In this document: in pieces, positions 20,077-55,308 of the stretch
How the letters are laid out: every line of letters starts with the position of its first letter
Numbering within the stretch: position 1 is the stretch's first letter
Source of the DNA: Acidobacteriota bacterium
Lineage (GTDB): Bacteria; Acidobacteriota; Thermoanaerobaculia; UBA2201
Direction of reading: 5' to 3'
Assembly (NCBI GenBank): GCA_037441225.1
Contig: JBBISU010000019.1
Location: forward strand, 1 to 55,308
DNA: 55,308 nucleotides
The notes under the pieces: model-generated
Told to the model about the DNA's origin: nothing
What the model saw: only the letters and a program-made list of their open reading frames with translations
Databases searched by the model: none
Program-made: the position numbers and the translations under genes

Positions 20077-20580
20077 ATGAAACAAAGTTTCTCTTTAAAA
20101 GAACTAATTGAGTATGCCTTGAGAAGGGAAGTGTTTTCAAAGAGATTGTATGAAAAACTTTCAGAAATGATCGAGAAAACAGAAGCAAAGATGATGATTA
20201 TAGAGCTTGCAAATTTTGAAGCAAGCCATATACAAGATTTTTCACTTGCCTTAGATTTGGAAATAAGGAGGGAAAAAATAAATTTAAAAGAATTTTTAAA
20301 TAAATGCGAGGAAACCCCTCTTGATGTTCCAGGTTATTTTAAAGAGCAAGATATTGAAAAAGCAAATATAGGAAAAATTTTGCAAATTGCAAAAAAGATG
20401 GAAAAGGAACAGGCAATTTTTTATAAAGATTTGTCAAAACAAACAGATAATCCTCATATATCAGAAACAGCAGATAAACTTTCTGGACAAGAAATGGAAC
20501 ATTTAAAATATATTAAAAGAATAGAAGAAATTTTAAATTTAGACATTGAAACTATGGAAGGAGAATTTCACGCCCAATGA
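20077..20580 (+). CDS. Ferritin-like / rubrerythrin-family di-iron protein
   Basis: Two E...ExxH pairs (EASH, EMEH) in a ~165-aa helical protein, with a strong SD (taggagg). ATGA overlap with metG. Confidence 0.6.
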   Translation: MKQSFSLKELIEYALRREVFSKRLYEKLSEMIEKTEAKMMIIELANFEASHIQDFSLALDLEIRREKINLKEFLNKCEETPLDVPGYFKEQDIEKANIGKILQIAKKMEKEQAIFYKDLSKQTDNPHISETADKLSGQEMEHLKYIKRIEEILNLDIETMEGEFHAQ

Positions 20581-22646
20581 ATAAAAAGATTTTAATAACT
20601 TCTGCACTTCCTTATGCAAATGGTCCAATTCATTTAGGACATCTCGTTGAATATATACAGACAGATATATATGTAAGATATTTAAAAATGAAAGGAGAAA
20701 AGGTTTTATATGTTTGTGCCGATGATACCCATGGCGCTCCAATTGAGATAAATGCTCAAAAACAAGGCATTACACCAGAAGAATTGATAAAAAAAATGTT
20801 TGAAGAACATTTAAGAGATTTTAAAGATATGCAAATTGAATTTGATTCTTATCATTCTACAAATAGTCCTGAAAACAAATTCTTTTCTGACTTAATATTT
20901 AAAAGATTGAGAGATAAAGGGGATATATATACAAAGGAAATAGAGCAAACCTACTGTACTATTTGTAAAAGATTTCTTCCAGATAGATTCGTAAGGGGAA
21001 CTTGTCCAAAGTGTGGAGCCCAAGACCAATATGGTGATGTCTGTGAGGTCTGTAACTCTATTTATGAGCCAGTAGATTTAATAAAGCCAAGGTGTGCAAT
21101 TTGTGGAGGAATACCAATAAAAAAGAAATCTTCCCATTATTTTTTTAAATTAACTTCATACAGTGATTTTTTAAAAAGATGGATTGAAGATAATCCAAAT
21201 TTTCAGGAATCAATAAAGGGATACCTTCTTTTTTGGATAAATTCTGGTTTAAAGGACTGGGATATTTCAAGGGATGCCCCTTATTTTGGTTTTAAAATCC
21301 TTGATGAAGAAGATAAATATTATTATGTTTGGTTGGATGCACCAATTGGCTATATCTCTTCAACTAAATTTTGGTGTGATAAAAATGGCTTTGATTATAA
21401 AGATTTTTGGGAAAGACCTGAAACTGATATAATTCATTTTATAGGAAAGGACATAATTTATTTCCACTTTCTTTTCTGGCCTGCAATTTTAAAAGGAGCT
21501 GGCTTTAATTTGCCAAAAAATATTGTAGTCCATGGATTTTTAACAGTTCAAGGACAAAAAATGTCTAAGTCAAAAGGAACTTTTTATACTGCTGAAGATT
21601 TTTTAAAACAATTTCCACCTGAGTTTTTAAGATTTTATTATGCAGCTCATCTAAATTCAGAACCTTTTGACCTTGATTTAAATGGAAGCCATTTTAAAGA
21701 TACAATAAATGGTAAATTAATTGATAATTGGTGCAATTTAATAAACAGAGTATTTCAGTTTATTGAAAAAAATTTAGATGGAAAGATTGTGCCACAAGTT
21801 CCTCCACAAGAAGATAGAGTGTATGAACTCATAGATGAGATAATATTAAATTATTCAAAACTTCAATATCATTTTGTTGTAAGGGATTTATTGGAGCTTT
21901 CAGATATAGGAAATGGCTATATGCAGTTTACAGAGCCCTGGAAAATTTTAAAAGAATCAAAAGAGGAAGCGATTAATTTAACATCTCGCCTTTGTGAATT
22001 AATTAAAAATATTGGTATTTTATTTTATCCAATCCTTCCAGAATATTCAAAGAAGATTTTGAATTCCTTAAGACTTGAAAAATTTGATATTTCAAATTTA
22101 AAAAAACCAATTAAAGAAAATATTTTAAAAGCAGAAAAAATCACTTTAAACAAGATAGATTTTGAACCCTTTAAAGTGATAGTTCCAATTGATAAACTAA
22201 GGCTTCAAGTGGCAGAAGTAATAGAGGCAAGGGAACATCCGAAAGCTGAAAAACTTATAATTTTAAAAATAAATCTTGGAGACAGCACAAGACAAATTGT
22301 TGCTGGGATTAAAAATTATTATAAATTAGAAGAACTTATGGAGAAAAAAATAGTTGTTTTAACAAACTTAAAATGGGTAAAGCTTCGTGGAGAAGAAAGT
22401 CAAGGAATGCTTTTAGCTGCTTCTTCTGAAGATAAAGTTTCTGTATTGGTTTCAAAACAAAAGCCCGGTACTTTCTTAGAAGCAGGCGGAGTTTTGGCAG
22501 ATAATACAGAAGAAATAACCATTGAGGATTTTGCAAAATACAAAATAGAGGCAATTGGTGGTAAAGTTTATTTTGAAGGAGAAATACTAAAGGCAGGAGA
22601 AGAAGAAATTTTAACAGATTTTCCAATTTCTGGAAATGTAAAATAG
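20577..22646 (+). CDS. metG: Methionine--tRNA ligase with C-terminal tRNA-binding (EMAP-like) domain
   Basis: ALPYANGPIHLGHL (HIGH), KMSKSKG, zinc knuckles CPKCG../CEVCN../CAICG, and C-terminal VAEVIEAREHPKAEKLIILKINLG. Confidence 0.95.
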   Translation: MNKKILITSALPYANGPIHLGHLVEYIQTDIYVRYLKMKGEKVLYVCADDTHGAPIEINAQKQGITPEELIKKMFEEHLRDFKDMQIEFDSYHSTNSPENKFFSDLIFKRLRDKGDIYTKEIEQTYCTICKRFLPDRFVRGTCPKCGAQDQYGDVCEVCNSIYEPVDLIKPRCAICGGIPIKKKSSHYFFKLTSYSDFLKRWIEDNPNFQESIKGYLLFWINSGLKDWDISRDAPYFGFKILDEEDKYYYVWLDAPIGYISSTKFWCDKNGFDYKDFWERPETDIIHFIGKDIIYFHFLFWPAILKGAGFNLPKNIVVHGFLTVQGQKMSKSKGTFYTAEDFLKQFPPEFLRFYYAAHLNSEPFDLDLNGSHFKDTINGKLIDNWCNLINRVFQFIEKNLDGKIVPQVPPQEDRVYELIDEIILNYSKLQYHFVVRDLLELSDIGNGYMQFTEPWKILKESKEEAINLTSRLCELIKNIGILFYPILPEYSKKILNSLRLEKFDISNLKKPIKENILKAEKITLNKIDFEPFKVIVPIDKLRLQVAEVIEAREHPKAEKLIILKINLGDSTRQIVAGIKNYYKLEELMEKKIVVLTNLKWVKLRGEESQGMLLAASSEDKVSVLVSKQKPGTFLEAGGVLADNTEEITIEDFAKYKIEAIGGKVYFEGEILKAGEEEILTDFPISGNVK

Positions 22647-22655
22647 GAGACAATT

Positions 22656-23261
22656 ATGCTTATTTTAATTCTTTTTTCTCTTTTTCCAAAGTATCCTTCT
22701 GAGATAATTTTTAGTGTTTTGGAAAAAAATATTGAAATAAAAATAATTTCTGAAGGTGAAAAATTTAGGATTGAAGTTTTAGGAAAGAGTGGTGAAATTT
22801 ATTATAAAGAAAAAGATAAAATTATGGTTCTTCAAGATAATAATTGGAAAGAAATAAAAAGCCCCTTATACAATGAAAACAATTTTTTCCTTTGCCTTTT
22901 TCTTGAAAAAAATGAAAATTTTCAAAGTGAAATTGAAAAAGATGAAAATGGTTTAAAAGGGGCAGTTATTTCAAGTAAAGAATGGGGAAAAGTTAATTTG
23001 AAAAGAATTAAATTTAATAAGTTGGAAGAAATCCCAGAAGGTATTTTTCCAAAAAAATCAAAACTAAATCTTTCAAAATTTAAATCTCTCCTTATGGGGG
23101 AAGATGAAAAGGAGGTTTCAGCAACAGCTGGAGCAAGGGGTGTTGGAGAAGAAGAAAATTTAGAAGCAGAACCAAATTATAACGCTTTAAAAGAAGTAGA
23201 AAAAATAACTGTTTCAAAAGAAGAAGTTGAAGAATTTGCAAAAGAGGTGAAATCTAAATGA
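22656..23261 (+). CDS. Hypothetical protein
   Basis: 201-aa ORF, co-directional with the M48 gene and overlapping it by 4 nt. No motif I can name. Confidence 0.5.
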   Translation: MLILILFSLFPKYPSEIIFSVLEKNIEIKIISEGEKFRIEVLGKSGEIYYKEKDKIMVLQDNNWKEIKSPLYNENNFFLCLFLEKNENFQSEIEKDENGLKGAVISSKEWGKVNLKRIKFNKLEEIPEGIFPKKSKLNLSKFKSLLMGEDEKEVSATAGARGVGEEENLEAEPNYNALKEVEKITVSKEEVEEFAKEVKSK

Positions 23262-24052
23262 AAAAAATTATTATTACTATTTTAATTTTTTCTCTCTATT
23301 CTTTTGCTCAGGACTGGAAAAAGATTGGTTCAATTTTTGGTGGCTTTAACAGGGAATTTACAGAAGAGGAAGAAAAAGAAATAGGGAGAGAAATTGCAGC
23401 AAAACTTTTAGGAATATATAAATTGTATAAAAATGATGAAATGACAAAATATATAAATTTAGTTGGGAAATATGTTGCTTTATCTTCTCCTGAACCAAAA
23501 AGAGAATATATATTTGCAATCCTTGACACTGATACAATAAATGCTTATTCTTGTCCCGGAGGGTATATTTTTGTTACCTTAGGACTTTTAAAAATTTTAT
23601 CTTCTGAGGCAGAGCTTGCAACAATCTTATCACATGAAATTGCCCATATAACTGAAAAACACATACTTAAAGAAATTAAAAGAGCAAATATTTTAGGAGA
23701 AGGAACTGAAATTTTAGCAGAGAAATCAATTGGAGGAAAAGGGATAGGAAAAGACCTTGCAAAGAAATTATCAAAAAAAGCAATGGAAACCCTTTTGAAA
23801 AAAGGGCTTGCAAAAAAGGATGAATATAAGGCAGATGAAATTGGCTTTGAGATTTCTTGTAAAGCAGGTTATTCATCAAAGGAATATTTAGAATTTTTAA
23901 AAAAATTAGAAAAAATAACAAAGGAACCAGGTATGGCAGTTTTAATAAAAACTCATCCAACTCCAGAGAATCGCTTTAAGGAACTAATAAAGAAGGATTG
24001 TTCTTCTGATATAATATTAAAAGAAAGATTTAAGGAAAGAACAAATTTATGA
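23258..24052 (+). CDS. M48-family zinc metallopeptidase (secreted/periplasmic)
   Basis: Signal peptide, HEIAHITEKH (HExxH), and downstream E in ADEIGFE. Confidence 0.8.
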   Translation: MKKIIITILIFSLYSFAQDWKKIGSIFGGFNREFTEEEEKEIGREIAAKLLGIYKLYKNDEMTKYINLVGKYVALSSPEPKREYIFAILDTDTINAYSCPGGYIFVTLGLLKILSSEAELATILSHEIAHITEKHILKEIKRANILGEGTEILAEKSIGGKGIGKDLAKKLSKKAMETLLKKGLAKKDEYKADEIGFEISCKAGYSSKEYLEFLKKLEKITKEPGMAVLIKTHPTPENRFKELIKKDCSSDIILKERFKERTNL

Positions 24053-26040
24053 AAAATTTTTGTGTTTTTATTTTAATTTTAATTTCAAGTTTTTCTTTTA
24101 GTCAAAATGTAGTTTTAATTACCCTTGACACAACAAGGCAGGATTCTCTCTCTTGTTATGGACAAAAGGGAATAAAAACAGAAAATTTAGACAAATTTGC
24201 AGAAAAATCGTATATTTTCTTAAATGCTTTTTCTCCAGTTCCACAGACACTTCCAGCCCATTGTACAATCTTTACTGGAACCTATCCCTTTGAGCATAAA
24301 GTAAGGGATAATTTAATAAATTTCTTGCCAGATGAAGCATTGACAATAACAGAAATATTAAAAGAGAAAGGTTATTCAACTGGTGCAGTTATATCCTCAG
24401 CTGTATTAAATCACAGATTTGGTTTAAAACAAGGCTTTGATTTTTATGATGATAAAATAGAAAAGAAAACTGGTGAAATAAAAGCAGAAGAAACAACAAA
24501 AAAAGCTTTGGAAATTTTAAAAAAATTAAAAGAACCATATTTCTTATGGGTCCATTATTATGATCCCCACCATCCTTATATGCCTCCAAAAGAAATAAAA
24601 GCGCCATCAAATTATTTAGGTGAAGTTTTATTTATGGATCAAAATTTAGGTAAATTATTTGAAAGTTTGAATCTCAATAATACCTTAATTATTATTGCAG
24701 GAGACCATGGGGAGTCCTTAGGTGAGCATAAAGAAAAAGAACATGCTGCCTTGCTTTATAATCCAGCAATTTCAATCCCTCTTTTATTACATTATCCTGG
24801 TCAAACAAAAAAGGAAGAGAGCAAAGAAAATGTTTCTCTGGTTTCAATTTTCCCTACAATAACTGAATTTTTGAAAATTGATATAAAAACTAATTATCCA
24901 TCTCTTTTGAAATCAGTAAACCCATCAATTTATCTGGAAACATATTATCCCTTTTTTAGTTTTCACTGGTCTCCCTTGAGGGGTATTATAAAAGAAAATC
25001 ATAAGCTAATACTTTCTTCAAGTGATGAAGAATTATATGACATTTCAAAAGACAAAAAGGAAGAGAAAAATTTAATAAAAAGTAAAGAAAAAATTGCCAA
25101 AAAATTAAAGGAAGAATTTTTTAAATTAACTACAGAGAAGGACTTTATGCCACTTCAAAGCAAAGGACATTCAGTCCCTGATGAATTAAAAAAACAACTC
25201 CAATCCTTAGGGTATATTGATGGCTCTTTTTTAGATCCAAGTGAAGCTAAACAAAAACTCCCAAATCCAAGGGATTTAGTTGATATTATTGATTTTTTAG
25301 TTCATAAAGGAAGGGAATTAATAATATCAAAGGATGCTGATTCAGTTATAAAAAATGTAAAAGAGATTTTAAAAAGAGATCCCAAAAACTTTCTTGCAAT
25401 GAATTTGGCAGGCGAGGCATATTGGATTAAAGAGGACTATAAAAGAGCAAAAGAAATTTTTGAAGCTGCCTTGAAAATTGCAGAGCATTCTTATCAGCTG
25501 CATGGAAATTACGGCTATTCTTTATTTAAACTTGGAGATCTTGAAGGTGCTAAAAAGGAATATGAAAGAGCATTAGAATTAAATGAAGATTACCCAGAGG
25601 GCTATGCTTATTATTCTGAATATTATTTATCAAAAAAGGATGTAAGAAATGCTTCCGACTTGCTTGAAAAAGCATTAAAAAAAGAATTAATTCATCCAAG
25701 GATTTATTATAACTATGGCTTAATTAAATTAGAAAAAAAAGATTTAAAAGGAGCAATAAGTTATTTTGAAAAAGCTTATGAAATAGATAAAAATTTCTTT
25801 GAATGTATTGGAAATTTAGCTTTTTGTTATTTCCAGTTGGGTGATAAAGAAAAAGCCTGGCAACATCTACAAGAAGGATTAAAAATAAATCCTAAAGATT
25901 TTAATATTTTAAAGGCATCAATAACAGTTGCAATAGAATTAAACAAAATTAAGGAAGCAGAAGAACTAGCAAAAAAATTAATTGAACTTTACCCTAACTC
26001 ACCTGAGGCACAAAGTTTAAAACCATTTTTTAAAAAATAA
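24049..26040 (+). CDS. Sulfatase-like alkaline-phosphatase-superfamily enzyme fused to C-terminal TPR repeats (paralog 1)
   Basis: Signal peptide, VVLITLDTTRQDSL metal site, SPVPQTLPAHCTIFTG nucleophile motif, GDHGESLGEH, and about 250 aa of TPR at the C-terminus. Confidence 0.85.
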   Translation: MKNFCVFILILISSFSFSQNVVLITLDTTRQDSLSCYGQKGIKTENLDKFAEKSYIFLNAFSPVPQTLPAHCTIFTGTYPFEHKVRDNLINFLPDEALTITEILKEKGYSTGAVISSAVLNHRFGLKQGFDFYDDKIEKKTGEIKAEETTKKALEILKKLKEPYFLWVHYYDPHHPYMPPKEIKAPSNYLGEVLFMDQNLGKLFESLNLNNTLIIIAGDHGESLGEHKEKEHAALLYNPAISIPLLLHYPGQTKKEESKENVSLVSIFPTITEFLKIDIKTNYPSLLKSVNPSIYLETYYPFFSFHWSPLRGIIKENHKLILSSSDEELYDISKDKKEEKNLIKSKEKIAKKLKEEFFKLTTEKDFMPLQSKGHSVPDELKKQLQSLGYIDGSFLDPSEAKQKLPNPRDLVDIIDFLVHKGRELIISKDADSVIKNVKEILKRDPKNFLAMNLAGEAYWIKEDYKRAKEIFEAALKIAEHSYQLHGNYGYSLFKLGDLEGAKKEYERALELNEDYPEGYAYYSEYYLSKKDVRNASDLLEKALKKELIHPRIYYNYGLIKLEKKDLKGAISYFEKAYEIDKNFFECIGNLAFCYFQLGDKEKAWQHLQEGLKINPKDFNILKASITVAIELNKIKEAEELAKKLIELYPNSPEAQSLKPFFKK

Positions 26041-38397: not shown

Positions 38398-39447
38398 ATG
38401 GGAGCCAAAATCTCTGCTTGTGGCATTTATGTCCCTGAAAATACTATAGATAATAACAGCCTTTCTAAATATATGGACACCTCTGATGAATGGATAAGAG
38501 AAAGAACTGGAATCATAAAAAGACATTTTGCAAGCCCTGAGGAATCCACAATCGATTTAGCTTACAAAGCAGCATTAAACTTAATTGAAGAAAGCAAAAT
38601 AGCTCCTTCAACAATTGACTATATTATTTTTGCAACAATGACACCTGATTGTTATTTCCCTGGCTCTTCCCCCTTCTTTCAAAGAAAACTTAAATTAAAA
38701 TCTGTCCCCTGCCTTGATATAAGGGGAAAATGTGCTGGTTTTTTATTTGGAATGCAGCTGGCAAATTCTTTATTATTTTCTGAAAATTATAAAAAGATAC
38801 TTTTGATTGGTGCAGAAATCCATACCTGTCTTTTCCCTTTTGAACCATTAAAACCAATCCTTGAAAAAACCTTTGAAGAAATTAGCAAGGAAAATTTTGA
38901 ATTAAATTCAAAATACAGGGATAGAATGGTTTTATTTGGAGATAGCGCAGGATGCTTTTTACTTGAAAAAAACGAAAAAGGTGGAATAATTGATTCAATA
39001 ATTTATACAGATGGAAATTTAGCCGAAAAATTGATTATAAAAGCAGGTGGAAGCCTTAGAAGACCCTTCTTTAGTCCAAAAGATTATAATAATGAAGATA
39101 TAATTCCCGTCTTAGAAGGAAGAGAGGTCTTTAAATTAGCAGTTACATTGATGCCAAATGTAGTAATGGAAATTTTGGAAAAAAATGGTTATTCAATAGA
39201 TGATTTAAATCTTTTAATAATGCATCAAGCAAATTTAAGAATAAATGAAGCAGTTCAAATAAAATTAGGGCTGCCAGATAAAAAGATTTTCAACAATATA
39301 CAAAAATATGGAAATACAACTGCTGCGACAATTCCTTTGGTTTATTATGAAGCAAAAAAGGAAGGAAAAATAAAAGAAGGAGATTTAATTTGTTTTGTTG
39401 CCCTTGGAAGTGGCCTTCACTGGGGAGCATTGCTTTATAGAGCATAA
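38398..39447 (+). CDS. fabH: Beta-ketoacyl-ACP synthase III (FabH-like) with an internal insertion
   Basis: Cys-His-Asn triad contexts are present: GKCAGFLFG, MHQANLRI, YGNTTAATIPL. About 25 extra residues (LFPFEPLKPILEKTFEEISKENFELNSKY) lie before the LFGDSAG strand. Starts 1 nt after the mglA-like stop. Confidence 0.75.
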   Translation: MGAKISACGIYVPENTIDNNSLSKYMDTSDEWIRERTGIIKRHFASPEESTIDLAYKAALNLIEESKIAPSTIDYIIFATMTPDCYFPGSSPFFQRKLKLKSVPCLDIRGKCAGFLFGMQLANSLLFSENYKKILLIGAEIHTCLFPFEPLKPILEKTFEEISKENFELNSKYRDRMVLFGDSAGCFLLEKNEKGGIIDSIIYTDGNLAEKLIIKAGGSLRRPFFSPKDYNNEDIIPVLEGREVFKLAVTLMPNVVMEILEKNGYSIDDLNLLIMHQANLRINEAVQIKLGLPDKKIFNNIQKYGNTTAATIPLVYYEAKKEGKIKEGDLICFVALGSGLHWGALLYRA

Positions 39448-45400: not shown

Positions 45401-48325
45401 GCCAACAGGAATATCACCATAACTTGCATTTGAAACAATTATCGTAACAAGAGGATTTGTTGTGCTTAAAGATGCATTTATACCTGTTGAATGTGCAGTA
45501 CCTGTATTTTGTATAATTGGACTGATATCTAAGTATTCACCAGGGTCTGCATTTGAATCTCCATCACCTGGACCACCTGAAAGACAATCATCTACAAAAG
45601 AAGTTGACTGGATTGAAAGGTTTGGTGTACCAGGTGTACAAATATTGCATACTGGGGAGGATGTAACTGCAAAAATTGATATATCATCAATGTGGCAGTC
45701 ATTTCCATAAGCACTTACTCCAAGTATTCCAATCATAACATTTGCCTGCCCTGCATAAGCAGATAGATCAACGCTATGCTCTGTCCATTGTACCGTTCCA
45801 TCATACCTTGAAATTGGTGCTCCTACATCTGCCCAACTTGTTCCTCCATCTGTTGAAACTTGAACCTGAACATAATCATTTGAAGTATTATATTCAATGT
45901 CATGGTACATCCAAAAATAAATATTTATAGAACCATAAGTAGAAAAATCAAAAGGAACATTGTATTGGAGGCGTGCACTCTTTCCAGATATTACATGCCA
46001 GGAATTAAACCATACAAGATTTGGAGCAGAATGGGAAGCTGTACCTGAAGGATGATGCGTTCCTGCATTTGTTGCCCAGGCAGGTGTTGTCCCACCTGGA
46101 TTGTTTACCACAACAGAGGACCAGTTTGCAGGAAGCGCTGGTGGAGCAATGCCATCAAAATTCTCATAAAATATTCTTGTAAGGGTTGAACCAACAGACA
46201 ATTGGAACATATCTGCCCAGCCACCTTCATTTGAAGAAATACTTAAATTTAAATCAATTGTTGTACCACAGGGCATTGTGGAATCTAAATGTATAAGATA
46301 ACCAGTTATAGAAGTTCCAGTTCCAGAAGCAGGAATATCTGGATAATTTGAAGAATTATTTAAAACAGTCACACCTGGAGTTGTGCTTGATAGGATTGCA
46401 GAAACACCAGTTGCTCCATCTGTTCCACTGTTTCTCAAAGTAACAAAAATAGTTATATCTTCACCTGGGTCAATTACACTATCCCCATCTCCAATACCAC
46501 CTGTCAAGCAATCATCTGTGTATATTGAACTATCATATTCAAGATTTGGTATTGAAACAGCAGCTGTTGTAAAAGACCATTCTGCGCCAGTCATAGTACC
46601 TGAACTATTTTTTGCAATAACATACCAATAATAGGTAGTTCCATTTGCTAGTCCATTTGCAGTGTATTGCGAAGAAGTTAAATTGCTTTGAAATAAGGGC
46701 GGGGAGGGGGTTGTTCCAAAATATAAATCATAGTAAATTGCATAAGGCGCATCTTCCCAGTCAATTAAAAGACCATTTGTTGGCTGGTCAATAGAGCCAT
46801 CAGGTGGTGCAATGTTATTAAATGCCCCAGGGGGTGGTGGTCCTACACAAGAAACAATTGATATGCCATCAACTTCTGCATCCCCTTGAAAAGCACCAAC
46901 AAGTGTTGTTGAGCCATTTGTAAGGTTTACAGTCCTGAGTTCACCTCTGCTCAATGTAAGATTATAAGCAGCCATATACATAATTTGATTGTCTACATCA
47001 AAATCCATTCCTTGTGCATAATTTGCATTAAAACCAACAGGACCTAAAAGAGTTGGAACTGCTGTTGCTGCATCAATTTTATATAAATTATCATTTCCTA
47101 TGTCAAGTGTATATAAATTTCCTGAAGAATCTGCTGCCAAATTTATAGCACAACTAACACCTGACACTTGCCCAACTTCTGTTGTTGCTCCATTTGCTGG
47201 ATTTAATGTATAAAGATAAGTATTACTTCCACAGTCAGTTGAAATTGCATAGACAGTTCCATTTGCATGTTCTGCAAGACCTGTAAAATAAGGTGCTGCA
47301 GGGTTTGGAGTTGAACTTCCTAAAACTGTTTTAGAAGCATCTGTTGTGCTGTAAGCAACAAATTGATTTGTATTGTCATCTATTGCATATATTCTGCTGT
47401 AATCCCCACCTATAAAATCTGCTCCGAAAGGGTAATCTGAACCAAAACTTCCAACTACATTAAATGTCCCTGGATTTGAAAGGTCAAACCAGACAAGGTT
47501 TGAATTATCCAAATCAAATCCATAAGCAACAACAGAACAAGCAGAAGTAGTGGTTGTAAAAGACCAAACAGGTCCTGTGGCAGGAGGGCACGTATTTAAA
47601 GTGTTATCTGCTACCACATACCAGAAATACTGTGTATTTCCTGAAAGCCCTGTAACATCATACTGACTTACAGAAGTTGTTCCATAATAAGGGGGTGGGT
47701 TTGTTGTTCCAAAATATAAATCATAAGTATTTGCACCAGTTGAATCATCCCAGTTTAAAGTCAAAGTTGTTGGTTGGTTTATTGCCCCATCTGCAGGATT
47801 AGGATTTGAAGGAAATGAAATTTGTGGATTTGAAGGACAGGAAACTGTTAAGTTTAAATCAGAATCATTTCCTGGTTGATCACTTTCTGTTGTTGAAGAC
47901 CATAAAACATTTCGCAGTTGAAAAGAAATTGGAGTTCCATCACAAACATCTGTTAGAGTATCAAAAGTAAAAGATGCCAAAAGTTGCGAACCAGAACCAG
48001 AAGGAATTGGAAGACCTGCAGCAGCAAAATTTATCCAGTTTGGAAAAACTCCAACACTTTCCGTCCAACCATTAGTTGTAAGTATTGGTCCCATAGTGTA
48101 ACCTGAATATGAAAAAATAGTACTATCAAAATAAAGACCTCCACCTGCGCCATCATTACTCCATTGAACTGCTACCAAATCATCAGGATTATCAACCCAT
48201 ACTTCAACATTTATTTGGTTTCCACAGGTAGGGTTATTAGCCACAAGTGAAAAACTTCGCGCTGCAGAAAGCACTACCAGAGATGAGGATAAAAAAACAA
48301 GGAAAAAAAGAATTAATTTTTTCAT
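42500..48325 (-). CDS. Giant (1941 aa) secreted modular surface protein
   Basis: Signal peptide (aa 1-21) and a cohesin-like beta-sandwich (aa ~24-163). Five Fn3-like modules each end W(S/H)FTT (aa 172-258, 499-587, 1195-1285, 1288-1378, 1383-1471). A propeller-like segment spans aa 262-492. Two copies of a [DDCL.GG.GDGDS..DPGE...PCGTTID..L.I.SNEG.W] module plus a jelly-roll/MAM-like domain lie at aa 592-887 and 899-1186. Two ~230-aa C-terminal repeats lie at aa 1480-1712 and 1722-1941. Confidence 0.9.
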   Translation of the reverse strand: MKKLILFFLVFLSSSLVVLSAARSFSLVANNPTCGNQINVEVWVDNPDDLVAVQWSNDGAGGGLYFDSTIFSYSGYTMGPILTTNGWTESVGVFPNWINFAAAGLPIPSGSGSQLLASFTFDTLTDVCDGTPISFQLRNVLWSSTTESDQPGNDSDLNLTVSCPSNPQISFPSNPNPADGAINQPTTLTLNWDDSTGANTYDLYFGTTNPPPYYGTTSVSQYDVTGLSGNTQYFWYVVADNTLNTCPPATGPVWSFTTTTSACSVVAYGFDLDNSNLVWFDLSNPGTFNVVGSFGSDYPFGADFIGGDYSRIYAIDDNTNQFVAYSTTDASKTVLGSSTPNPAAPYFTGLAEHANGTVYAISTDCGSNTYLYTLNPANGATTEVGQVSGVSCAINLAADSSGNLYTLDIGNDNLYKIDAATAVPTLLGPVGFNANYAQGMDFDVDNQIMYMAAYNLTLSRGELRTVNLTNGSTTLVGAFQGDAEVDGISIVSCVGPPPPGAFNNIAPPDGSIDQPTNGLLIDWEDAPYAIYYDLYFGTTPSPPLFQSNLTSSQYTANGLANGTTYYWYVIAKNSSGTMTGAEWSFTTAAVSIPNLEYDSSIYTDDCLTGGIGDGDSVIDPGEDITIFVTLRNSGTDGATGVSAILSSTTPGVTVLNNSSNYPDIPASGTGTSITGYLIHLDSTMPCGTTIDLNLSISSNEGGWADMFQLSVGSTLTRIFYENFDGIAPPALPANWSSVVVNNPGGTTPAWATNAGTHHPSGTASHSAPNLVWFNSWHVISGKSARLQYNVPFDFSTYGSINIYFWMYHDIEYNTSNDYVQVQVSTDGGTSWADVGAPISRYDGTVQWTEHSVDLSAYAGQANVMIGILGVSAYGNDCHIDDISIFAVTSSPVCNICTPGTPNLSIQSTSFVDDCLSGGPGDGDSNADPGEYLDISPIIQNTGTAHSTGINASLSTTNPLVTIIVSNASYGDIPVGSFAPPATPFEVYLSETIPCGTTIDFTLNITSNEGSWVDTFQINVGGSGPVIYLLSEEFESWPPLGWTIVDEQPGWSCDVWRSTAYWGATNDTGGAGEAADADSDACGGGMDTSMITPLINLSGYASAILDYDCNFQDYLGNGDAWTDISIDGGATWTNLRYETIDDPSTGHHVTIDLTPYIGQTIQIKFHFFTPAWDWYWRIDNVYISVTTPVCNVCSCPLPDPFNLITPPDLSTNVPLTNVLFDWDDSAGATSYNFYLGQTIPPPLYQVGLATSQITVPSLSQNTTYYWYVDAVNICGTTSSAVWSFTTVCPVPGAFNLISPPNGTTGIPTANVLLDWQDSSGATSYNLYFGTNPTPLLYQSNILSSQFTIPSLSQSTTYYWRVEAVNACGTTSSSTWSFTTETGCIPPDPPQLISPPNGSTDLIPPIELVWSGSGADYYEVYLGKMVGYLDLIGTTTGTSFVVSNLEEGTTYYWVINAVNSCGNASSEAWHFTTAGAPPVEEYNTIIPAVASAEGARSSLWKTDVQIFNPTEKTISYTMYFIPPDTDGTQTPYQFKGTIEPKKLAIFNDIVKNTFGLSHIVGGIQIVSNGNSISTARTYNRTELGTYGQFVKGYDVSSAIGKDSSYFVRQNEVGHIFHLINSISFRTNVGFMEVKGEPVEALINIYDNENNLLGSGSYNLQPKGFLQVNDIFNNLGISGFKSSARAEIKINGDGALFAYASVVDNYSNDAIFVPLLKEEGNLQNQSIAVAANKEGDRGTFWKSDLRIFNPKEEAQDVTINFVEKGNLYTKTVEVEGKNIIYTNDLIEQFFGLTDNVGEVQIIAPEGVLATSRIYTSMEENMTYGQFVPSTLIQGAIGINQEQYILHLASNESFRTNIGISEITGSPATVEIKLYSSDGNELASGMFNLSGNEFKQINRIFEIFNIGNVNNGYAKVKVLSGNGSVLVYGSVVDNYTGDAIYVIGQ

Positions 48326-48353: not shown

Positions 48354-48381
48354 ATTATATCAGATTTATTTTATTTGTCAA
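48354..48381 (-). promoter_or_regulatory. Consensus sigma-70 promoter of the giant surface-protein gene
   Basis: Minus strand reads TTGACA, a 16-nt spacer, then TATAAT (ttgacaaataaaataaatctgatataat). SD caaggaggt follows, 5 nt before the ATG at 48325. Confidence 0.75.
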
Positions 48382-48524: not shown

Positions 48525-50138
48525 TTAAAAGGGCTTTTTATGGCCTAAACTGTTAAAAGTTGGAAAGACTAACCTTGAAGCATATTTTTTTGTAAAATAA
48601 ATTTTAACATTAGCAACTTCTTTTTTTGTTTCCTTATGAATTTCTTCCCCACTTTGTGGATTTATTTCAAACCTTGGATAATTTGAACCACTTAAAATTG
48701 CACCAATTTTATGGCTTTCTTTGAAATAATAAAAAGTATTTCCTATATTAACTTTTATTTTATAAACTTTTCCTTCTTCTAAAAGTTTTTCTTCCTCAAA
48801 ATTTTCTTTAAACCTTGCTCTTTGACATCCATCAGATATTAAAATCCATCTTCCATCGGGATAAATATCAACTAATCTTATACAAAGGTCTAAATCCTTT
48901 TTGTCAGAAGAGAAAAAAATTTCTGCATAAACATTTCCTAAAATTTTTAATGGTTCTTCAAGGATGTTTGTTTGAAAATAAATTATATCGTCTCTATTTA
49001 AAATTTCTCTTTGATCAAAGGGACCATTTTTTAAAAATAAATTTGCACCTCCAATTGTAGGAGAAGGATTCTCTGGATCAAACCTAACTTCTAAGAAATT
49101 TTCATCCTCTGGCTTCTCTTTTGTTAAGCTTTTTTCTTTTGAAAGATAAAACCTTTTTAAAGGATAATTTATTTGATTATACTCTTTTAAATTAAACCAT
49201 ATATTGTAATCATTTGATGAGACATTGACATCCCCCATTATGTAACCAAAGAAACTTTTATCTTTAAAAGGTTTTTCACCTTTTCCTTTCAAGTAATAGT
49301 CAAACCAATTTTCAATTATATTATCTAAATTTAGAATTGAATTTGAAGGATAATTTAATTCCCCTTGTTTTGTAGTAAGGTAACCGCTGTGTGTCCAGGG
49401 ACCAATTATTAAAACTTGATCATCTTTGTCTTTTGAAACTTTTTTAAAACCTTTATATGCTTCAATTGTTCCATCCTTAAACAAGTCATACCATCCACCA
49501 ATATTTAAAGTTGAAATATTTAAATTATCGTACTTTCCATCAAGAGACAAAGAATCCCACAAATAATTTTTTTTTGGATTTTCCAATAAAAGGGGAATAT
49601 TTTTTTCTTCATCGTTTTCTCTCATCCACTTTAAAATATCATATTCTCTAAAAACTCCCCCAGGATATACAGCATATTCATAAAGATCTGGCGTTGCAAC
49701 TAAAGATACTATTGTTTTTAAAGAAGAAGGATTTGTAGAAGCCATTAGATAATTGTTAATTCCTAAGGCAGAAGCACCAAAGGCACCAATATTTTTATTG
49801 CACCAGCTTTGTTCTTCAAGAAACTTTATAGTATCAAAGCCATCTTCTGCTTCCTTTAAAAAAGCAGAAGGGTCTCCCCCTGATTTATTATGTCCCCTTG
49901 TATCTTGAATTGCCACTATGTATTTCTTAGAAGAAAAATAAAAACCAACTGAACGCAAATTTTCTTTTCCATAAGGAGTCCTGATCAATACCACAGGCAA
50001 AGGGTCATCAAAAGAATAAGGGAAATAAATATCAGTTGAAAGAGGTACCCCATCCCTTGTAATTATATTATATGTTTCATAATATTGGGATAAAGATATA
50101 TTTGCTATAAAAAGAACTATTAAAAATTTAAATTTCAT
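48525..50138 (-). CDS. CocE/NonD-family (peptidase S15-like) alpha/beta hydrolase, secreted
   Basis: Signal peptide, VVLIRTPYGKE..AIQDTRGHNKSGGD, nucleophile elbow GASALG, and the C-terminal non-catalytic domain string SHKIGAILSGSNYPRFEINPQSG. Confidence 0.85.
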   Translation of the reverse strand: MKFKFLIVLFIANISLSQYYETYNIITRDGVPLSTDIYFPYSFDDPLPVVLIRTPYGKENLRSVGFYFSSKKYIVAIQDTRGHNKSGGDPSAFLKEAEDGFDTIKFLEEQSWCNKNIGAFGASALGINNYLMASTNPSSLKTIVSLVATPDLYEYAVYPGGVFREYDILKWMRENDEEKNIPLLLENPKKNYLWDSLSLDGKYDNLNISTLNIGGWYDLFKDGTIEAYKGFKKVSKDKDDQVLIIGPWTHSGYLTTKQGELNYPSNSILNLDNIIENWFDYYLKGKGEKPFKDKSFFGYIMGDVNVSSNDYNIWFNLKEYNQINYPLKRFYLSKEKSLTKEKPEDENFLEVRFDPENPSPTIGGANLFLKNGPFDQREILNRDDIIYFQTNILEEPLKILGNVYAEIFFSSDKKDLDLCIRLVDIYPDGRWILISDGCQRARFKENFEEEKLLEEGKVYKIKVNIGNTFYYFKESHKIGAILSGSNYPRFEINPQSGEEIHKETKKEVANVKIYFTKKYASRLVFPTFNSLGHKKPF

Positions 50139-50997
50139 AAATACCTTTTAAAAGCTTAATCTCCCTGTTATGAAGTTTAAAAATCTTTTGGAAAAAACCA
50201 CTTTCCGATGCCTCAATAAATTTTAATTTTTCTTTTTCCAAATATTTACAAATTGAATTAAAGAGCATTGGACTGCTTATAATTGAAGAAAGCAATGATT
50301 TTCCTTTTTCTTTATCTTCAATTAAAGAAATATCAATTGGGCTTAAAATTGGAATTTCTGGATTTTTCAAATTTTTCCATAAATCTTCATTCTTTTCTAA
50401 TTCTTTTGAAACTTCTCTTAAAATTGGTGTATGGATAGGCCAGGGAGAAGGTAACATTTTTAAAGAAAAAGCTTTATCTTTTAAAAAATTGTAAACTTCT
50501 TCAATATCTTCTTCTTTCCCTCCTATTGTATAAGACATTGGATGGTTTATAGAAGAAAAATAAATGTTTTTTAAATTTATTTTTGCTTCTTCTAAGGGAT
50601 AACCAGAGACATAAAGCAGTTTACCTTTTAAGTTTAATTTATTTGCTATATCATAATTAAATTTTAATATTTTTATTACATCTTCAAAAGGAAGGATTTC
50701 TGCCAAAGCAATTGAAGGGAAAACACCTAAACTGTAAGGAACTAAAATTTTTATCTTATATTTTTCTTTTAATGCAAGGCCTAAAGAATAAGCATACCAG
50801 CAAATTATTGGCTGGGAGTATTTGATATCATAAATTTCTTCAGAACTATTTATAATTATTTCTTTTAGATCAAACCCCCAGATTTTTTCAGTAATATTTA
50901 AGATTTCAAGAGAAAAGGGCAATTTATTAAGGAGTACTTTTCCAAACCCAATCTCTTCTGCCCCCTGCCCTGGAAGAAAAAATATTATTTCTTGCAC
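50128..50997 (-). CDS. Divergent FabD-like acyltransferase (malonyl-CoA:ACP transacylase fold)
   Basis: FFLPGQGAE (compare FPGQGSQ), YSQPII (compare QTQPAL), VPYSLGV in place of GHSLGE, and WPIHTPIL in place of VPSHCALM. Confidence 0.65.
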   Translation of the reverse strand: MQEIIFFLPGQGAEEIGFGKVLLNKLPFSLEILNITEKIWGFDLKEIIINSSEEIYDIKYSQPIICWYAYSLGLALKEKYKIKILVPYSLGVFPSIALAEILPFEDVIKILKFNYDIANKLNLKGKLLYVSGYPLEEAKINLKNIYFSSINHPMSYTIGGKEEDIEEVYNFLKDKAFSLKMLPSPWPIHTPILREVSKELEKNEDLWKNLKNPEIPILSPIDISLIEDKEKGKSLLSSIISSPMLFNSICKYLEKEKLKFIEASESGFFQKIFKLHNREIKLLKGIYEI

Positions 50998-51179
50998 TTT
51001 ATAAAAAATTCTATAGATCTATTATATGTTCTTTCATCCTTTGGTGAAAAAAAACAGCCAGGGATTTCTCCATTTCTTCTATGATAAAGGACACATTCAC
51101 AACACAAACCCTTCCTTGGACAGGGCTCATAAGTACAAGTGCAAATTTTTAAGTTTTTTTCTTTATTGCATTCTGCCAT
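50985..51179 (-). CDS. Small cysteine-rich cytoplasmic protein (DUF6485-like, from memory)
   Basis: 64 aa with 8 Cys: CNKEKNLKICTCTYEPCPRKGLCCECVLYHRRNGEIPGCFF. Overlaps both flanking genes (17 nt and 13 nt). Confidence 0.6.
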   Translation of the reverse strand: MAECNKEKNLKICTCTYEPCPRKGLCCECVLYHRRNGEIPGCFFSPKDERTYNRSIEFFIKCKK

Positions 51180-53127
51180 AAAGCTCCTCCAGATTTATTT
51201 TTTCTCCTCTTTCAATTTTATCTATTTTTTCCTTTATTTTATTACATATATTACTTTTTTGACAAAAATTATATGCTCTATATAAATAAATTAAACTTTC
51301 ATCTTTTTTCCCTTCTAATATATATAAAATAAGACCCAAATTGTAATTTGCTTCTGTGTTATTTGGATAAACTTTAAGAACTTGCTTATAATAATTTGCT
51401 GCTACCTTTAAATTTTCTTTTTTTATTGAAACCCTTCCAAGTGATAAAAGGAATTCAGGGTTTATTGGATCCATCTTGTAGCATTTATGATAAAGAAAAA
51501 AACTTTCATCATACTTTTTTTCTTCTTCTCTTATTTTTGCCACTTCAAAAAATAAAAAGGGATCCTCTATTTGGTTTTCTTCTGCTCTTTTTTGTAAATT
51601 TATAATTTCCTCTTTTTTTCCTTTTTTAGAATAAATTTTTGAAAGTTCCCCATATGCTTCCCTTAACCTTGGATTTTTTTCAATACAAAATTTTAATATT
51701 TCTTCTGCTTCATTAAATAAATTATTTGCAATCAATGCTTGTGCATATCTTAATTTTGTTACAACATCACTGGATCGCAAATAATAAAGCTTCTTAAAGG
51801 TTTCAAGCCCTTTCTTATTTTCACCAATTGACAAATACAATTTACCTAAGGCAGATAAAACTTCTCCATGCTGAGGAAACTCTTTTAAAATAGAATTTAA
51901 AATTTCAACTGCTTTTTTGTAATCTTTAAATTCAAGTTCCTCATAAGCTTCTTTTAATTTTTTTTCTGCTAAAACACCTTTTTCAGGGTCTTTTAAATTT
52001 TCTCCTTTTTTTGGCATCAAATAACCAAGGGATTTCAAAATTTTTTCACTTTCTTTTGGGAACTCATCCAAATTATCAGGGAAAACCTTTTCTTTTAAAA
52101 CTTTTAACATCTCTTTTACCTTATCTCTCTTTTCCTTAGATACATCTTTTTCTTCTTTTGGATCTTTTTTCAAATCAAAGAGTTTAAAATTTTTATCTCC
52201 ATATAAAATTAGTTTATAATCTTTAAAAATCACTGCCTTTGCATCTTGAAAACCAAAGACCTCTCTCCCATAAATTGAAGAAGAAATTACTGGTTTTTCT
52301 TCCAATTTGCTTAAAATTTCTTTTAAACTTCTTTCTTCAAAAAAATAACTATAAATTATTTTATAAATCTCTTCAAAAGAAATCCTTTTTGAAAATTTTG
52401 CCTTTTTTATTTCAGGATTTATTAAAAGGCAAGGGACTTTTATTGCCCCTTCATACAAAAGAACACCATGTTCTAATTCACCATGCTCACCTAACAATTC
52501 CCCATGGTCACCTATTATCAAAGTTATTGTATTTTCTGGCAAAGTTTTAAATAATTCACTAACACAAAAATCAGTGTAAGCAATTTCTCCATCATAAGGA
52601 TTTTCAAAATTTTTCCTGAAATTTTCGGGGGGTATATAAGGGCTATGGGGATCAAAAAAATGGATCCACAAAAAAAATGGTTCTTTCAATTCCTTATTTT
52701 TTTCTTTAAATAAATTTAATGTATCTTCACATCTCCTTTCATTATTCATATTATCTTCATAAAAATCAAAACCAGATGATATCCCAAAGACCCTATCCAA
52801 AATTGAAGAAGAAACAAAACCATAAGTATTATAATTTTTTTCCTTAAATATTAATGGAAGATAATTTTTATTTGCTTTAAAAAACTGACCATTTAAAAAT
52901 ATTTTATGTTGAAAGGGCTCAACACCAGTAAAAAGTGAAATATGTGCAGGGAGTGTTAATGGAACAGGTGAATAAACATTTTCAAAAACAATTCCTTCCT
53001 TTGAAATTTCCATCAAATTTGGCGTTGTCTTTAAATCTTGGTTTGTCAAAGTTGTATGGTCTGCTCTTGTTGTGTCAAGGGTAAGGATTAATAAATTTTT
53101 TATTGAAAATATTAAAAAGAAAAGAAT
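51163..53127 (-). CDS. Sulfatase-like alkaline-phosphatase-superfamily enzyme fused to C-terminal TPR repeats (paralog 2); probable non-canonical ATT start
   Basis: SPVPLTLPAHISLFTG, GDHGELLGEH and C-terminal TPRs. The track start (TTG 53049) cuts off the conserved in-frame NLLILTLDTTRADH metal site. The frame is open to 53142 and has no ATG/GTG/TTG there, but AGGAG (53135..53139) lies 7 nt before ATT 53127. Confidence 0.7.
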   Translation of the reverse strand: MLFFLIFSIKNLLILTLDTTRADHTTLTNQDLKTTPNLMEISKEGIVFENVYSPVPLTLPAHISLFTGVEPFQHKIFLNGQFFKANKNYLPLIFKEKNYNTYGFVSSSILDRVFGISSGFDFYEDNMNNERRCEDTLNLFKEKNKELKEPFFLWIHFFDPHSPYIPPENFRKNFENPYDGEIAYTDFCVSELFKTLPENTITLIIGDHGELLGEHGELEHGVLLYEGAIKVPCLLINPEIKKAKFSKRISFEEIYKIIYSYFFEERSLKEILSKLEEKPVISSSIYGREVFGFQDAKAVIFKDYKLILYGDKNFKLFDLKKDPKEEKDVSKEKRDKVKEMLKVLKEKVFPDNLDEFPKESEKILKSLGYLMPKKGENLKDPEKGVLAEKKLKEAYEELEFKDYKKAVEILNSILKEFPQHGEVLSALGKLYLSIGENKKGLETFKKLYYLRSSDVVTKLRYAQALIANNLFNEAEEILKFCIEKNPRLREAYGELSKIYSKKGKKEEIINLQKRAEENQIEDPFLFFEVAKIREEEKKYDESFFLYHKCYKMDPINPEFLLSLGRVSIKKENLKVAANYYKQVLKVYPNNTEANYNLGLILYILEGKKDESLIYLYRAYNFCQKSNICNKIKEKIDKIERGEKINLEELYGRMQ

Positions 53128-54299
53128 AATCCCACTCCTAAGTTATTCTTTTTATAATCAAAATCATCATTTTTTTCATAAATTGAAAAGGTGTAATAAC
53201 CCAAGAGATTTCCATCAAACTGCTTAAAATTTAAAGGGTAAGTGGCTCCCAATGTAAATTCAGCGCCATTCCCCATTTCAAAACCAACAAAAGAAGGATT
53301 TTTTACAATTTTTTCTTTTAAAAGGATTTCAAAATAACCTTTCAGTTTATTTGGAAATTCATAAGAAAGAAGTGCTTTTAATTTAAAAGAATCTTTAAAA
53401 TTTGCATCAATTTCTTGATCTTTTAAAACATCTTCGCCAGTTGAAGGGTCAACTGTTTCATTTTCATAATTAAAGCTTATTTTATTCCAGGAAGAGTATT
53501 TTGTATAAATCAAGGAAGCTGAAAGCTCAAAATCTTTTATTGGTTTTGTGCCTGAAATTATTATCTCTTGAGGTATGTAACTTTCAGTTTTCACTCCTCC
53601 TGATGGATAAAAGGTTTTCAATGTTTTATATACTTCTTCTGAAGTATCTTCTTCTGGTTCAAAATTTACTTCAAAATCATTAAACCCATAAGAAATTTTC
53701 AAATCAGGCCTGAAAATAAAAGCAAATTTGTAATCTTTAAATTTATATAAACTTGAAAGCTCAAAAGTTATTCCTTTTTTTGAACCCTTATAAGAGCCAT
53801 AAACTTCATAATTTCTTCCATCAATTTCAGGTGAAATTTCACTTTTGGAAAAAGCCAAATCCAAATCAATTTGTCTTAAAGAAAAGCCAACATTTAAATT
53901 ATTTAAAGTCCTTATCCCAAGGGATGCTCTAATCTCTTTTGCATTGTATTCAAACTTTCTTAAATTAAACCTAAAAGGGACATCTCCTTTAAAATTGCTA
54001 TTTTGAAAAAGGAAGGGAAAAATACCTGCTCCAATTGCTATATCTTCTGTAATATTATAAGAACCAGAAATTATTCCTTTAAAACCCTTTTCTTCCTTTG
54101 AGTTGAAATTTCTATAACTTGATTTTTCGTAAGAAAAATTTAAGCTTGAAAAAAATTGAAAGCCCTCAAATTCAACCATTGAAGAAGGGTTTAAAATAGC
54201 ACTTTCCCCTCCTCTTGTATTTGAAGGATAACTCCCAAAAAATCCTTCTTGTGAAAACAAATTAAAGGCAAAGAAAACTATTAAAAATATCCTTTTCAT
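53112..54299 (-). CDS. Outer-membrane beta-barrel protein, FadL/OmpP1-like (tentative)
   Basis: Signal peptide MKRIFLIVFFAFNLFSQ (start placed at the internal Met), N-terminal GGESAILNPSSMVEFEG resembling the FadL hatch region, alternating beta-strand pattern, and a terminal aromatic ..GVGLFFSF. Confidence 0.55.
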   Translation of the reverse strand: MKRIFLIVFFAFNLFSQEGFFGSYPSNTRGGESAILNPSSMVEFEGFQFFSSLNFSYEKSSYRNFNSKEEKGFKGIISGSYNITEDIAIGAGIFPFLFQNSNFKGDVPFRFNLRKFEYNAKEIRASLGIRTLNNLNVGFSLRQIDLDLAFSKSEISPEIDGRNYEVYGSYKGSKKGITFELSSLYKFKDYKFAFIFRPDLKISYGFNDFEVNFEPEEDTSEEVYKTLKTFYPSGGVKTESYIPQEIIISGTKPIKDFELSASLIYTKYSSWNKISFNYENETVDPSTGEDVLKDQEIDANFKDSFKLKALLSYEFPNKLKGYFEILLKEKIVKNPSFVGFEMGNGAEFTLGATYPLNFKQFDGNLLGYYTFSIYEKNDDFDYKKNNLGVGLFFSF

Positions 54300-54693
54300 A
54301 AGAAATATTTTAACATAAAACTTCAATAATTTATAAAGTTTGATCCCTTCTTTCTTTCTTTAACTTTTAAAAGTTGTGATTTTGAATTTTTTTTTAAATC
54401 CCATTGTTATTTTTTAAAAAATCTTTGTTCTTAAATTTTTTCTTAAACCAAAAATGTCATTAAAATTTAATTATTAATAGAACCCTCCTTTTTTTCTTAT
54501 AATAAAAAACACCAAAGATTCAGAAATAAAAGAAAAAAGAAGCCAAACCTTGTGGTAAATTACAACATGCTGGAAATACAATAAAAATTTTTTTCTGCAG
54601 GGGTTGAGATTGCTTAAGCCCGGTATTTTTCAAGTCGTGCAAGGTTTCCAATAATTATATTACAAATCCTGCTCTCATTAATCCCTTTTCCCT

Positions 54694-54951
54694 TCATTTC
54701 TTTATAATTATTGGAGAAATAACTATAAATATCAAAACTATTAAAAATAATATCAAATATGTTTTCCTAACTTTCAATAAAAAATCTGCTTTTATGATTT
54801 TTTTCCATCTCAAAAAATAAAGAAAAATAATCACAAAAAATATTGAAATCAAAATATAAATTGGCAATATATAATTCATACTAATTTTCAATAATAAAAA
54901 TAGAAAGATAAATAATAAAATAACTGTGATATTTGATGACAAATTCTTCAT
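54694..54951 (-). CDS. Small three-TM membrane protein; candidate immunity protein for the upstream Rhs tip
   Basis: 85 aa with three hydrophobic segments. SD aggagg lies 6 nt before the ATG, and the gene starts 21 nt after the Rhs stop codon. Confidence 0.5.
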   Translation of the reverse strand: MKNLSSNITVILLFIFLFLLLKISMNYILPIYILISIFFVIIFLYFLRWKKIIKADFLLKVRKTYLILFLIVLIFIVISPIIIKK

Positions 54952-54972
54952 AATATGCCTCCTTTCATTTTA

Positions 54973-55308
54973 TTAAAAAGGTCCAGATGGTATGCATAAC
55001 CATGCTAAACCTTCATAACATGCCTGAACAGCTAAACATTCCAGCCAATCCTGTCCTGAACAACAATCACAAGGAAATCCTGTGCCATCCCAACAACCTC
55101 CACAATCATCGCATAAACCTTCAAGACATTCATTAATATCATTTAAAGGCCCTCCATTAGATAACATCATTCCAATAATTGGCTTGCCATAAAGACCTAT
55201 TGGATCTGAATAAGTTAAAGGTAGATTATATGAATAAATATAAAAATTTTGCCAAAGAGAATAAAATAAAATATCTTTATTTATAAACCTTCCTAAGTGT
55301 GAATTATA
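54973..55308 (-). CDS. 3' end of an Rhs/YD-repeat polymorphic toxin gene (partial; continues beyond the window) with a cysteine-rich C-terminal tip
   Basis: The minus-strand frame is open from the window edge: YNSHLGRFINKDILFYSLWQNFYIYSYNLPLTYSDPIGL (the GRF..D...N.Y.Y..N.P....DP.GL end of the Rhs-associated core; DPIGL = 55192..55206). A 72-aa tip follows. The track's 65-aa ORF is only its tail. Confidence 0.75.
   Translation of the reverse strand, partial: YNSHLGRFINKDILFYSLWQNFYIYSYNLPLTYSDPIGLYGKPIIGMMLSNGGPLNDINECLEGLCDDCGGCWDGTGFPCDCCSGQDWLECLAVQACYEGLAWLCIPSGPF

Follow-up and report, generated by a model that had tools for sequence, protein, structure and literature searches.

A minus-strand five-gene string in an Acidobacteriota genome divides into two separable gene pairs and a widespread small cysteine-rich gene

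What might explain why genes for an outer-membrane barrel, an enzyme of the alkaline phosphatase (AP) superfamily, a very small cysteine-rich protein, an acyltransferase (AT)-like enzyme and a secreted hydrolase are chained together in one bacterial genome? The five genes lie on the minus strand of a 55,308-nucleotide (nt) stretch of DNA from an Acidobacteriota bacterium (assembly GCA_037441225.1, contig JBBISU010000019.1, positions 1 to 55,308), hereafter the window. From 5' to 3' they encode a FadL/TodX-fold barrel (53112..54299, 395 amino acids, aa), a sulfatase-fold AP-superfamily domain with C-terminal tetratricopeptide repeats (TPR; together AP/TPR, 51163..53127), a 64-aa, predicted cytosolic protein of the DUF6485 family (50985..51179), an AT-like FabD-fold Ser-His enzyme (50128..50997) and a CocE/NonD serine hydrolase of family S15 (48525..50138). 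A first-pass annotation of the window had labelled them as a FadL-like barrel, an AP-superfamily enzyme with TPR, a small protein with eight cysteines, a FabD-like protein lacking the malonate-binding arginine and a secreted CocE/NonD hydrolase, and domain and fold searches agree with each label. It had also suggested that the set serves a single pathway for uptake or remodelling of an envelope molecule. The individual families are known; together the five genes do not make up any established system, and the evidence divides the set into two.

The five genes recur in about ten uncultured relatives (L001 to L026 label the homologous loci and contigs compared with the window), and the arrangement varies. 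Synteny does extend beyond this genome: the order is colinear in seven relatives, being found in L001/L002, L003, L004 together with L013, L014 (partial), L024 and L025, whose proteins are 65-90% identical and whose far downstream flanks differ, those of L001 and L003 having no counterpart within the window's 48 kb. What is not conserved is the five-gene set as one unit, and the rearranged loci L011, L015/L016 and L026 act as a natural deletion series. In L015 and L016 a segment comprising rpmB, a 177-aa gene (up177), the FadL-like gene and the AP/TPR gene is divergent from one comprising the DUF6485, AT-like and CocE/NonD genes, with the rpmB and DUF6485 starts about 47 nt apart; one inversion that broke the DNA exactly between the AP/TPR and DUF6485 genes accounts for this arrangement, and the adjacency that remains therefore carries no weight. 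L026, the most divergent relative (barrel 54% and AP/TPR 62% identical), has rpmB, up177, FadL and AP/TPR, with succinate dehydrogenase genes (sdhCDA) next on the opposite strand, and its 10-kb contig carries no DUF6485, AT-like or CocE/NonD gene. In L011 (4094-4153) an in-frame deletion has left of the DUF6485 gene only an open reading frame (ORF) of 14 codons, MREYIIDFFIKCKK and a stop codon, in which GGAGG and ATG are still present and the AT-like start is still overlapped.

Through all of these contexts two gene pairs are always kept. The FadL-AP/TPR pair, with its shared junction, is found with an Rhs-type cassette upstream in the window, with prfB upstream in L011, beside the inversion in L015 and L016, and in L026, and the 11-nt overlap between the AT-like and CocE/NonD genes is present in seven of the seven loci where the junction could be read. 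Neither the DUF6485-AT adjacency nor that of the two pairs to each other is kept, and DUF6485 is dispensable. The string thus consists of two separable modules, A (barrel and AP/TPR) and B (AT-like and CocE/NonD), plus a widespread small cysteine-rich hitch-hiker gene. The lineage is rare, since a word search among 5.8 billion clusters gives only 14 homologs of the AT-like protein and the barrel has ten, the window's own protein included; its members carry inconsistent public labels, as "Thermoanaerobaculia" and "Methylomirabilis" metagenome-assembled genomes (MAGs).

The distribution of DUF6485 is very different. The window protein scores 33.2 bits against PF20095 (cutoff 24) and is a member of the family, which has 246 homologs at 60-91% identity across phyla; at 60-78% identity it is found in Elusimicrobia, Omnitrophica, Desulfobacterota, WOR-3, Spirochaetes and others. 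Across 26 sequences, eight cysteines and one histidine do not vary (C4, C13, C15, C20, C26, C27, C29, H33 and C42). Outside the lineage, no AT-like gene stands beside DUF6485 in six sampled contexts. Instead, the gene follows a BNR/sortilin-like gene and precedes nikR, with cbiMQO next in one of two such loci (L006); overlaps larA beside hypCDE (L008 and L022); lies between tRNA methyltransferase and radical-SAM genes; follows DUF362 and overlaps a tricorn-like protease gene; or follows thiI and precedes fur, with hypC nearby. The spread over phyla and the varied contexts point to a general small metal-binding protein and not to a partner of the AT-like enzyme, and the pairing of the two that the first-pass annotation had raised is not a general one. 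Metal-related genes often adjoin DUF6485 (nikR/cbiMQO, larA/hypCDE, fur/hypC and DUF362, among L006-L010 and L019-L023). The protein may bind Ni, Fe or Zn; we found no mention of DUF6485 in the literature. Its gene has a strong Shine-Dalgarno sequence of its own (GGAGGA) and the GTG start of the AT-like gene, 13 nt inside it, has none, so its local role would mainly be that of an upstream ORF that couples translation into the AT-like gene. In the L011 remnant the Shine-Dalgarno sequence, start codon and overlap all persist, and coupling, not the protein, is therefore what stays next to the AT-like gene.

The barrel of module A is recognized by its fold. Against the Pfam family Toluene_X (PF03349) it scores 18.6 bits, below the gathering score of 29.7, some relatives having a precomputed PF03349 match, and its family profile found no meaningful match among Protein Data Bank (PDB) sequences. 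An AlphaFold2 (AF2) model built from ten family members has a pLDDT of 74, with values below 50 for residues 1-34 and 100-112 and low confidence in the N-terminal hatch region. Foldseek places 3dwo, 1t16, 3bry and 3brz (FadL of P. aeruginosa and E. coli, TbuX and TodX) at the top with TM-scores of 0.58-0.71; porins score about 0.3. With a signal peptide (MKRIFLIVFFAFNLFSQ) and a C-terminal FSF, the modelled barrel most likely lets in a compound that is hydrophobic or amphipathic. The family is almost confined to this lineage.

The AP/TPR enzyme has a Sulfatase domain (PF00884, 113 bits), matches to many TPR families, and the metal-binding motifs LDTTRAD and GDHGE. The CxPxR motif of sulfatases is replaced by TLPAH, with Thr at the Cys/Ser position, so that formylglycine chemistry is not expected. 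Thr nucleophiles are typical of phosphoryl-transfer members of the AP superfamily such as NPP, EptA and LtaS. Threonine at the formylglycine-precursor site therefore makes a phosphoester or phosphodiester hydrolase most likely, not a sulfatase, and the lack of a membrane domain argues against a transferase of the EptA/LtaS type. A paralog in the window (24049..26040, plus strand) is 29% identical, also has TLPAH, and at the corresponding place carries a complete signal peptide. The N-terminus of AP/TPR itself, ILFFLIFS, resembles a signal-peptide core, and the protein is probably exported via a minimal signal peptide. We found no literature that combines sulfatase, tetratricopeptide, FadL and outer membrane.

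How AP/TPR is translated is less conventional. Its frame is open to 53142, and no ATG, GTG or TTG lies upstream of LDTTRAD; the first TTG (53049), from which an ORF listing starts the gene (51163..53049), comes after the motif. The probable start is ATT 53127 (or 53130), 7 nt past a GGAG (53138..53135) inside the barrel gene. Ten lineages (the window, L001, L003, L004, L011, L015, L016, L024, L025 and L026) have ATT, ATA or ATC exactly 7 nt past GGAG within the barrel gene; none of the ten has an ATG, GTG or TTG ahead of the catalytic Asp motif, and no canonical start is conserved across them. The junction looks like a conserved near-cognate (AUH) start codon with translational coupling. Two other explanations were rejected. 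An assembly error would have to be common to ten independent assemblies, and a -1 frameshift fusing barrel and AP/TPR at T_TTT_TAA is contradicted by L003, which has C_TTC_TAA and no slippery run; the fusion is further ruled out by the typical terminal FSF of the barrel and by the AP frame, which in the window opens only about 10 codons upstream.

To place the AT-like enzyme of module B, its sequence, fold and active-site residues were compared with those of FabDs and related proteins. It scores 27 bits against Acyl_transf_1, under the cutoff, and 73.4 bits against TIGR00128 (FabD) where the cutoff is 260.9. HMMER, run in full over 1.84 billion representatives, returned one cluster representative of its own family, one 36% identical relative (L017), and otherwise polyketide AT domains and FabDs at 20-30% identity. 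The AF2 model (pLDDT 75) matches malonyl-CoA:acyl carrier protein transacylases in Foldseek with TM-scores of 0.75-0.83, and the solved structure of highest identity (25%) is PksD, an acyl hydrolase of the bacillaene synthase. Alignment with true FabDs puts Asn114, invariant in the family, at the malonate-binding Arg (Arg117), which confirms the absence of that arginine noted in the first-pass annotation. Tyr88 occupies the position of the His in GHSLG, PYSLGV replacing GHSLGE; Ser89, His189 and Gln11 are invariant, and the GQG oxyanion loop is kept. The lack of this Arg is described as diagnostic of acyl hydrolases, which do not conserve a His in front of the Ser (PMC11775670). The AT-like enzyme has the same residue pattern as these hydrolases (PksD/PedC): no Arg, and no His before the nucleophile. 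Judged by these residues, it is predicted to be unable to bind malonate and is not a FabD; its substrate is most likely a non-carboxylated acyl thioester on acyl carrier protein (ACP) or CoA, which it would transfer or hydrolyse, both hydrolysis and carrier loading being possible. No polyketide synthase (PKS) or ACP gene is present in the window or in the loci of its relatives. The more distant L017 relative has an ACP gene 44 nt downstream (PP-binding, 46 bits). That locus (211-2081) is on a high-G+C contig with a 21-nt tandem repeat at its start, and both the ACP gene and a response-regulator/PilZ gene come after the AT relative.

Its partner in module B is assigned with higher scores. CocE/NonD matches TIGR00976 with 272 bits (cutoff 66.3), PF02129 (S15) with 148 bits, PF08530 (PepX_C) with 80 bits and cocaine esterase 1ju3 with 219 bits. 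GASALG, GGWYD and GPWTH, read by eye, match the Ser/Asp/His triad. Together with its signal peptide (MKFKFLIVLFIANISLSQ), these matches make it a predicted secreted serine esterase or peptidase.

Is the chaining of the genes itself informative? The overlaps described in the first-pass annotation are real, those of 17, 13 and 11 nt exactly and that of 16 nt given a start of AP/TPR at ATT 53127. When identical ORF rules are applied to the other 23 same-strand neighbour pairs of the window, 10 of them overlap too, and four overlaps in a row are therefore not unusual here. Indeed, another overlap-chained string (20077..26040, plus strand) consists of genes for rubrerythrin, methionyl-tRNA synthetase (MetRS), a 201-aa protein, an M48 peptidase and the AP/TPR paralog. 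At the 3' limit of the five-gene string, the separate consensus promoter of the first-pass annotation is confirmed (48381..48354, minus strand): a sigma-70 TTGACA-16-TATAAT with TG, matching at 12 of 12 positions, ahead of the next gene, whose ATG (48325) is preceded by a Shine-Dalgarno AAGGAGG. Inside the block, a promoter scan gave 54 matches of 9-10/12 against 38.5 +/- 7.1 expected, and such matches are common by chance. In this genome the five genes probably share one transcript that starts from a promoter just 5' of the barrel ATG.

The barrel gene almost certainly starts at ATG 54299 and not at TTG 54326, the start in the ORF listing (53112..54326), because the resulting 395 aa match all relatives (395-396 aa) and because homology to L024 already ends at 54318. 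The 367-nt gap upstream of the string given by the first-pass annotation is correct if TTG is the start; with the ATG the real gap is 394 nt. A candidate extended -10 element, TGTTAAAAT (54315..54307, minus strand), lies 7 nt 5' of the ATG without a Shine-Dalgarno sequence, and TGTTA(A/G)AAT followed by 7 nt and ATG is common to the window, L024 and L001. The spacing suggests a leaderless message for the string, transcribed from this element. In L011, L015 and L016 the barrel gene has an AGGAG Shine-Dalgarno in place of the extended -10 element. Elsewhere in the lineage, a 10/12 promoter in L015 (7772-7808) stops some 9 nt short of the rpmB ATG, which also hints at leaderless transcripts.

By blastn, the window and L024 are 92% identical in DNA from 54318 to 48783, with no match further upstream (54318..54693, strand not assigned). 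In eight of eight relatives with a visible upstream side, rpmB and up177 head the string, and tblastn finds no remnant of up177 in the 367-nt upstream gap or the window. A recent rearrangement has swapped rpmB and up177 for an Rhs-type toxin/immunity cassette at the window end (54318-55308). The up177 protein (L003 6168-6701 and homologs) has 177-179 aa and no Pfam family; by eye it has the look of a Rossmann-type methyltransferase with a degenerate S-adenosylmethionine motif, and in the MAG of L004 it is split into two frames. At the other end of the string, the next gene encodes a 1941-aa surface protein (42500-48325, minus strand), of which 55-65% identical homologs adjoin the block in L015 (3-3857) and L016 (47-2413), there on its opposite side and convergent with the AP/TPR gene. 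A different giant protein, with M28, fn3 and MAM domains, follows CocE/NonD in L001 and L003.

How are these observations best combined? We give even credence to a composite string, in which modules A and B are packed together and probably co-transcribed and DUF6485 is not a partner of the AT-like enzyme, and we infer a functional link inside each pair. Module A, which rpmB and up177 precede in relatives, would be an envelope unit whose barrel admits a hydrophobic phosphoester to a periplasmic phosphodiesterase, perhaps held at the channel by its TPR and made at a low, coupled level from the AUH codon 7 nt past GGAG in the barrel gene. Module B would join a cytosolic acyl-thioester enzyme to a secreted esterase or peptidase. 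Several points weigh against this composite. No RNA run contains the window sequence, which occurs only in four DNA runs, all of a single subsurface-metagenome study. In E. coli, AUC and AUA initiate translation very weakly, and it is therefore conservation that has to carry the start assignment of AP/TPR. The N-terminus of that protein lacks a charged n-region, which makes its export uncertain. Module B may sit elsewhere in the L026 genome, and, with AT-like proteins 65-90% identical among the relatives that have module B, its kept adjacency could be mere descent. A more elaborate form of the composite is improbable in our view when all its parts are taken jointly: the barrel and AP/TPR would form a two-part envelope machine, a TPR-docked channel with a Thr-nucleophile phosphodiesterase that strips phospho-head groups from amphipathic lipids entering or leaving the outer membrane, its dosage set by the AUH start, and the AT-like and CocE/NonD proteins would be a second new module built on an acyl-hydrolase-type FabD-fold enzyme outside any PKS.

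Descent might also account for everything, the genes being functionally unlinked, packed into a small, A+T-rich, compact genome, and syntenic through recent common ancestry. This is the strongest competitor of the composite, and still an unlikely one. It fits the overlaps elsewhere in the window and the similar chain from rubrerythrin to the AP/TPR paralog, rpmB at the head of the string in relatives, and the upstream flank (T2SSE, DUF8575, HATPase and DUF6600), which is also kept in L003, L004, L024 and L025. It does not readily explain why FadL-AP/TPR survives in all contexts with so unusual a junction, a Shine-Dalgarno sequence and ATH start inside the barrel gene, why the AT-CocE overlap is the same wherever it could be read, or why hardly any members of either the FadL-like or the AT-like family occur outside the lineage. 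That same AT-CocE overlap speaks against another view, in which the AT-like enzyme loads or proofreads the carrier of a specialised ACP-dependent lipid pathway encoded elsewhere and its adjacency to CocE/NonD is incidental. The ACP gene beside the L017 relative, an active site like that of an acyl hydrolase or a loading AT, and the confirmed β-ketoacyl-ACP synthase III (KAS III) gene of the window (38398..39447) would suit such a role, but the want of an ACP gene in the window and in every close relative's locus does not, and we think it improbable. Least probable of all is the single pathway, in which the five genes take up or remodel an acylated or phospho-linked envelope molecule and the Cys-rich protein partners the AT-like enzyme. 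A colinear order kept in seven relatives despite differing far flanks, the tight overlap of every junction, and parts that are plausibly complementary (channel, phospho-enzyme, acyl enzyme and esterase) do favour it. However, the halves are split in L015 and L016 and module A has no module B beside it in L026, L011 has lost DUF6485 by deletion, the neighbours of DUF6485 in other genomes are unrelated, and a ribosomal protein gene (rpmB, L28) is also part of the relatives' string. The block also contains no inner-membrane transporter, ACP or lipid-synthesis gene, and AP/TPR lacks the membrane domain of known lipid-modifying transferases of the AP family. As to the envelope remodelling of the first-pass annotation, no result favours remodelling over scavenging, nor any link between the halves.

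In a genome as compact as this one, a pathway is not defined by overlaps together with synteny among relatives whose proteins are 65-90% identical. The most unusual parts of the string are the AT-like clade, with its acyl-hydrolase marks and no PKS, and the conserved AUH-start junction. If the pairs are true functional units, module A would combine a channel with an enzyme to handle hydrophobic phosphoesters, in a subsurface lineage about which little is known, and module B would contain the first acyl-hydrolase-type FabD-fold enzyme outside a polyketide synthase.

Each component can be set against its known counterparts. The barrel resembles the FadL, TodX and TbuX channels in its best structural matches, its signal peptide and its C-terminal aromatic residue, and differs from them in a sequence score under the Pfam threshold and in having no fad or aromatic-degradation genes nearby. 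AP/TPR shares the PF00884 domain, LDTTRAD and GDHGE with S1 sulfatases and the AP superfamily; unlike them it has TLPAH, a TPR fusion of about 250 aa, no membrane domain and a non-canonical start. DUF6485 is a member of its family by its Pfam score and its eight invariant Cys and one His, and its place between AP/TPR and AT-like genes is particular to this lineage. CocE/NonD is akin to CocE and the alpha-amino-acid ester hydrolases of family S15 in its TIGR00976 and 1ju3 matches and its triad motifs, except that it has a Sec-type signal peptide. The AT-like enzyme has counterparts in two groups. Like FabD it has the fold (TM about 0.8), the PGQG oxyanion loop and the placement of Ser and His, but it falls below the TIGR00128 cutoff, has Asn for Arg117 and PYSLG for GHSLG, and lies outside any fab operon. 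Compared with PksD and PedC, the acyl hydrolases of trans-AT PKSs, it has Asn instead of the usual Gln or His, no neighbouring PKS or ACP gene and a secreted CocE/NonD as its pair, and at 289 aa it is too short for an extension such as Ile287-Arg324 of PksD; with these hydrolases it nevertheless shares the FabD fold, the Ser-His dyad, an uncharged residue in place of the Arg and a residue other than His before the Ser.

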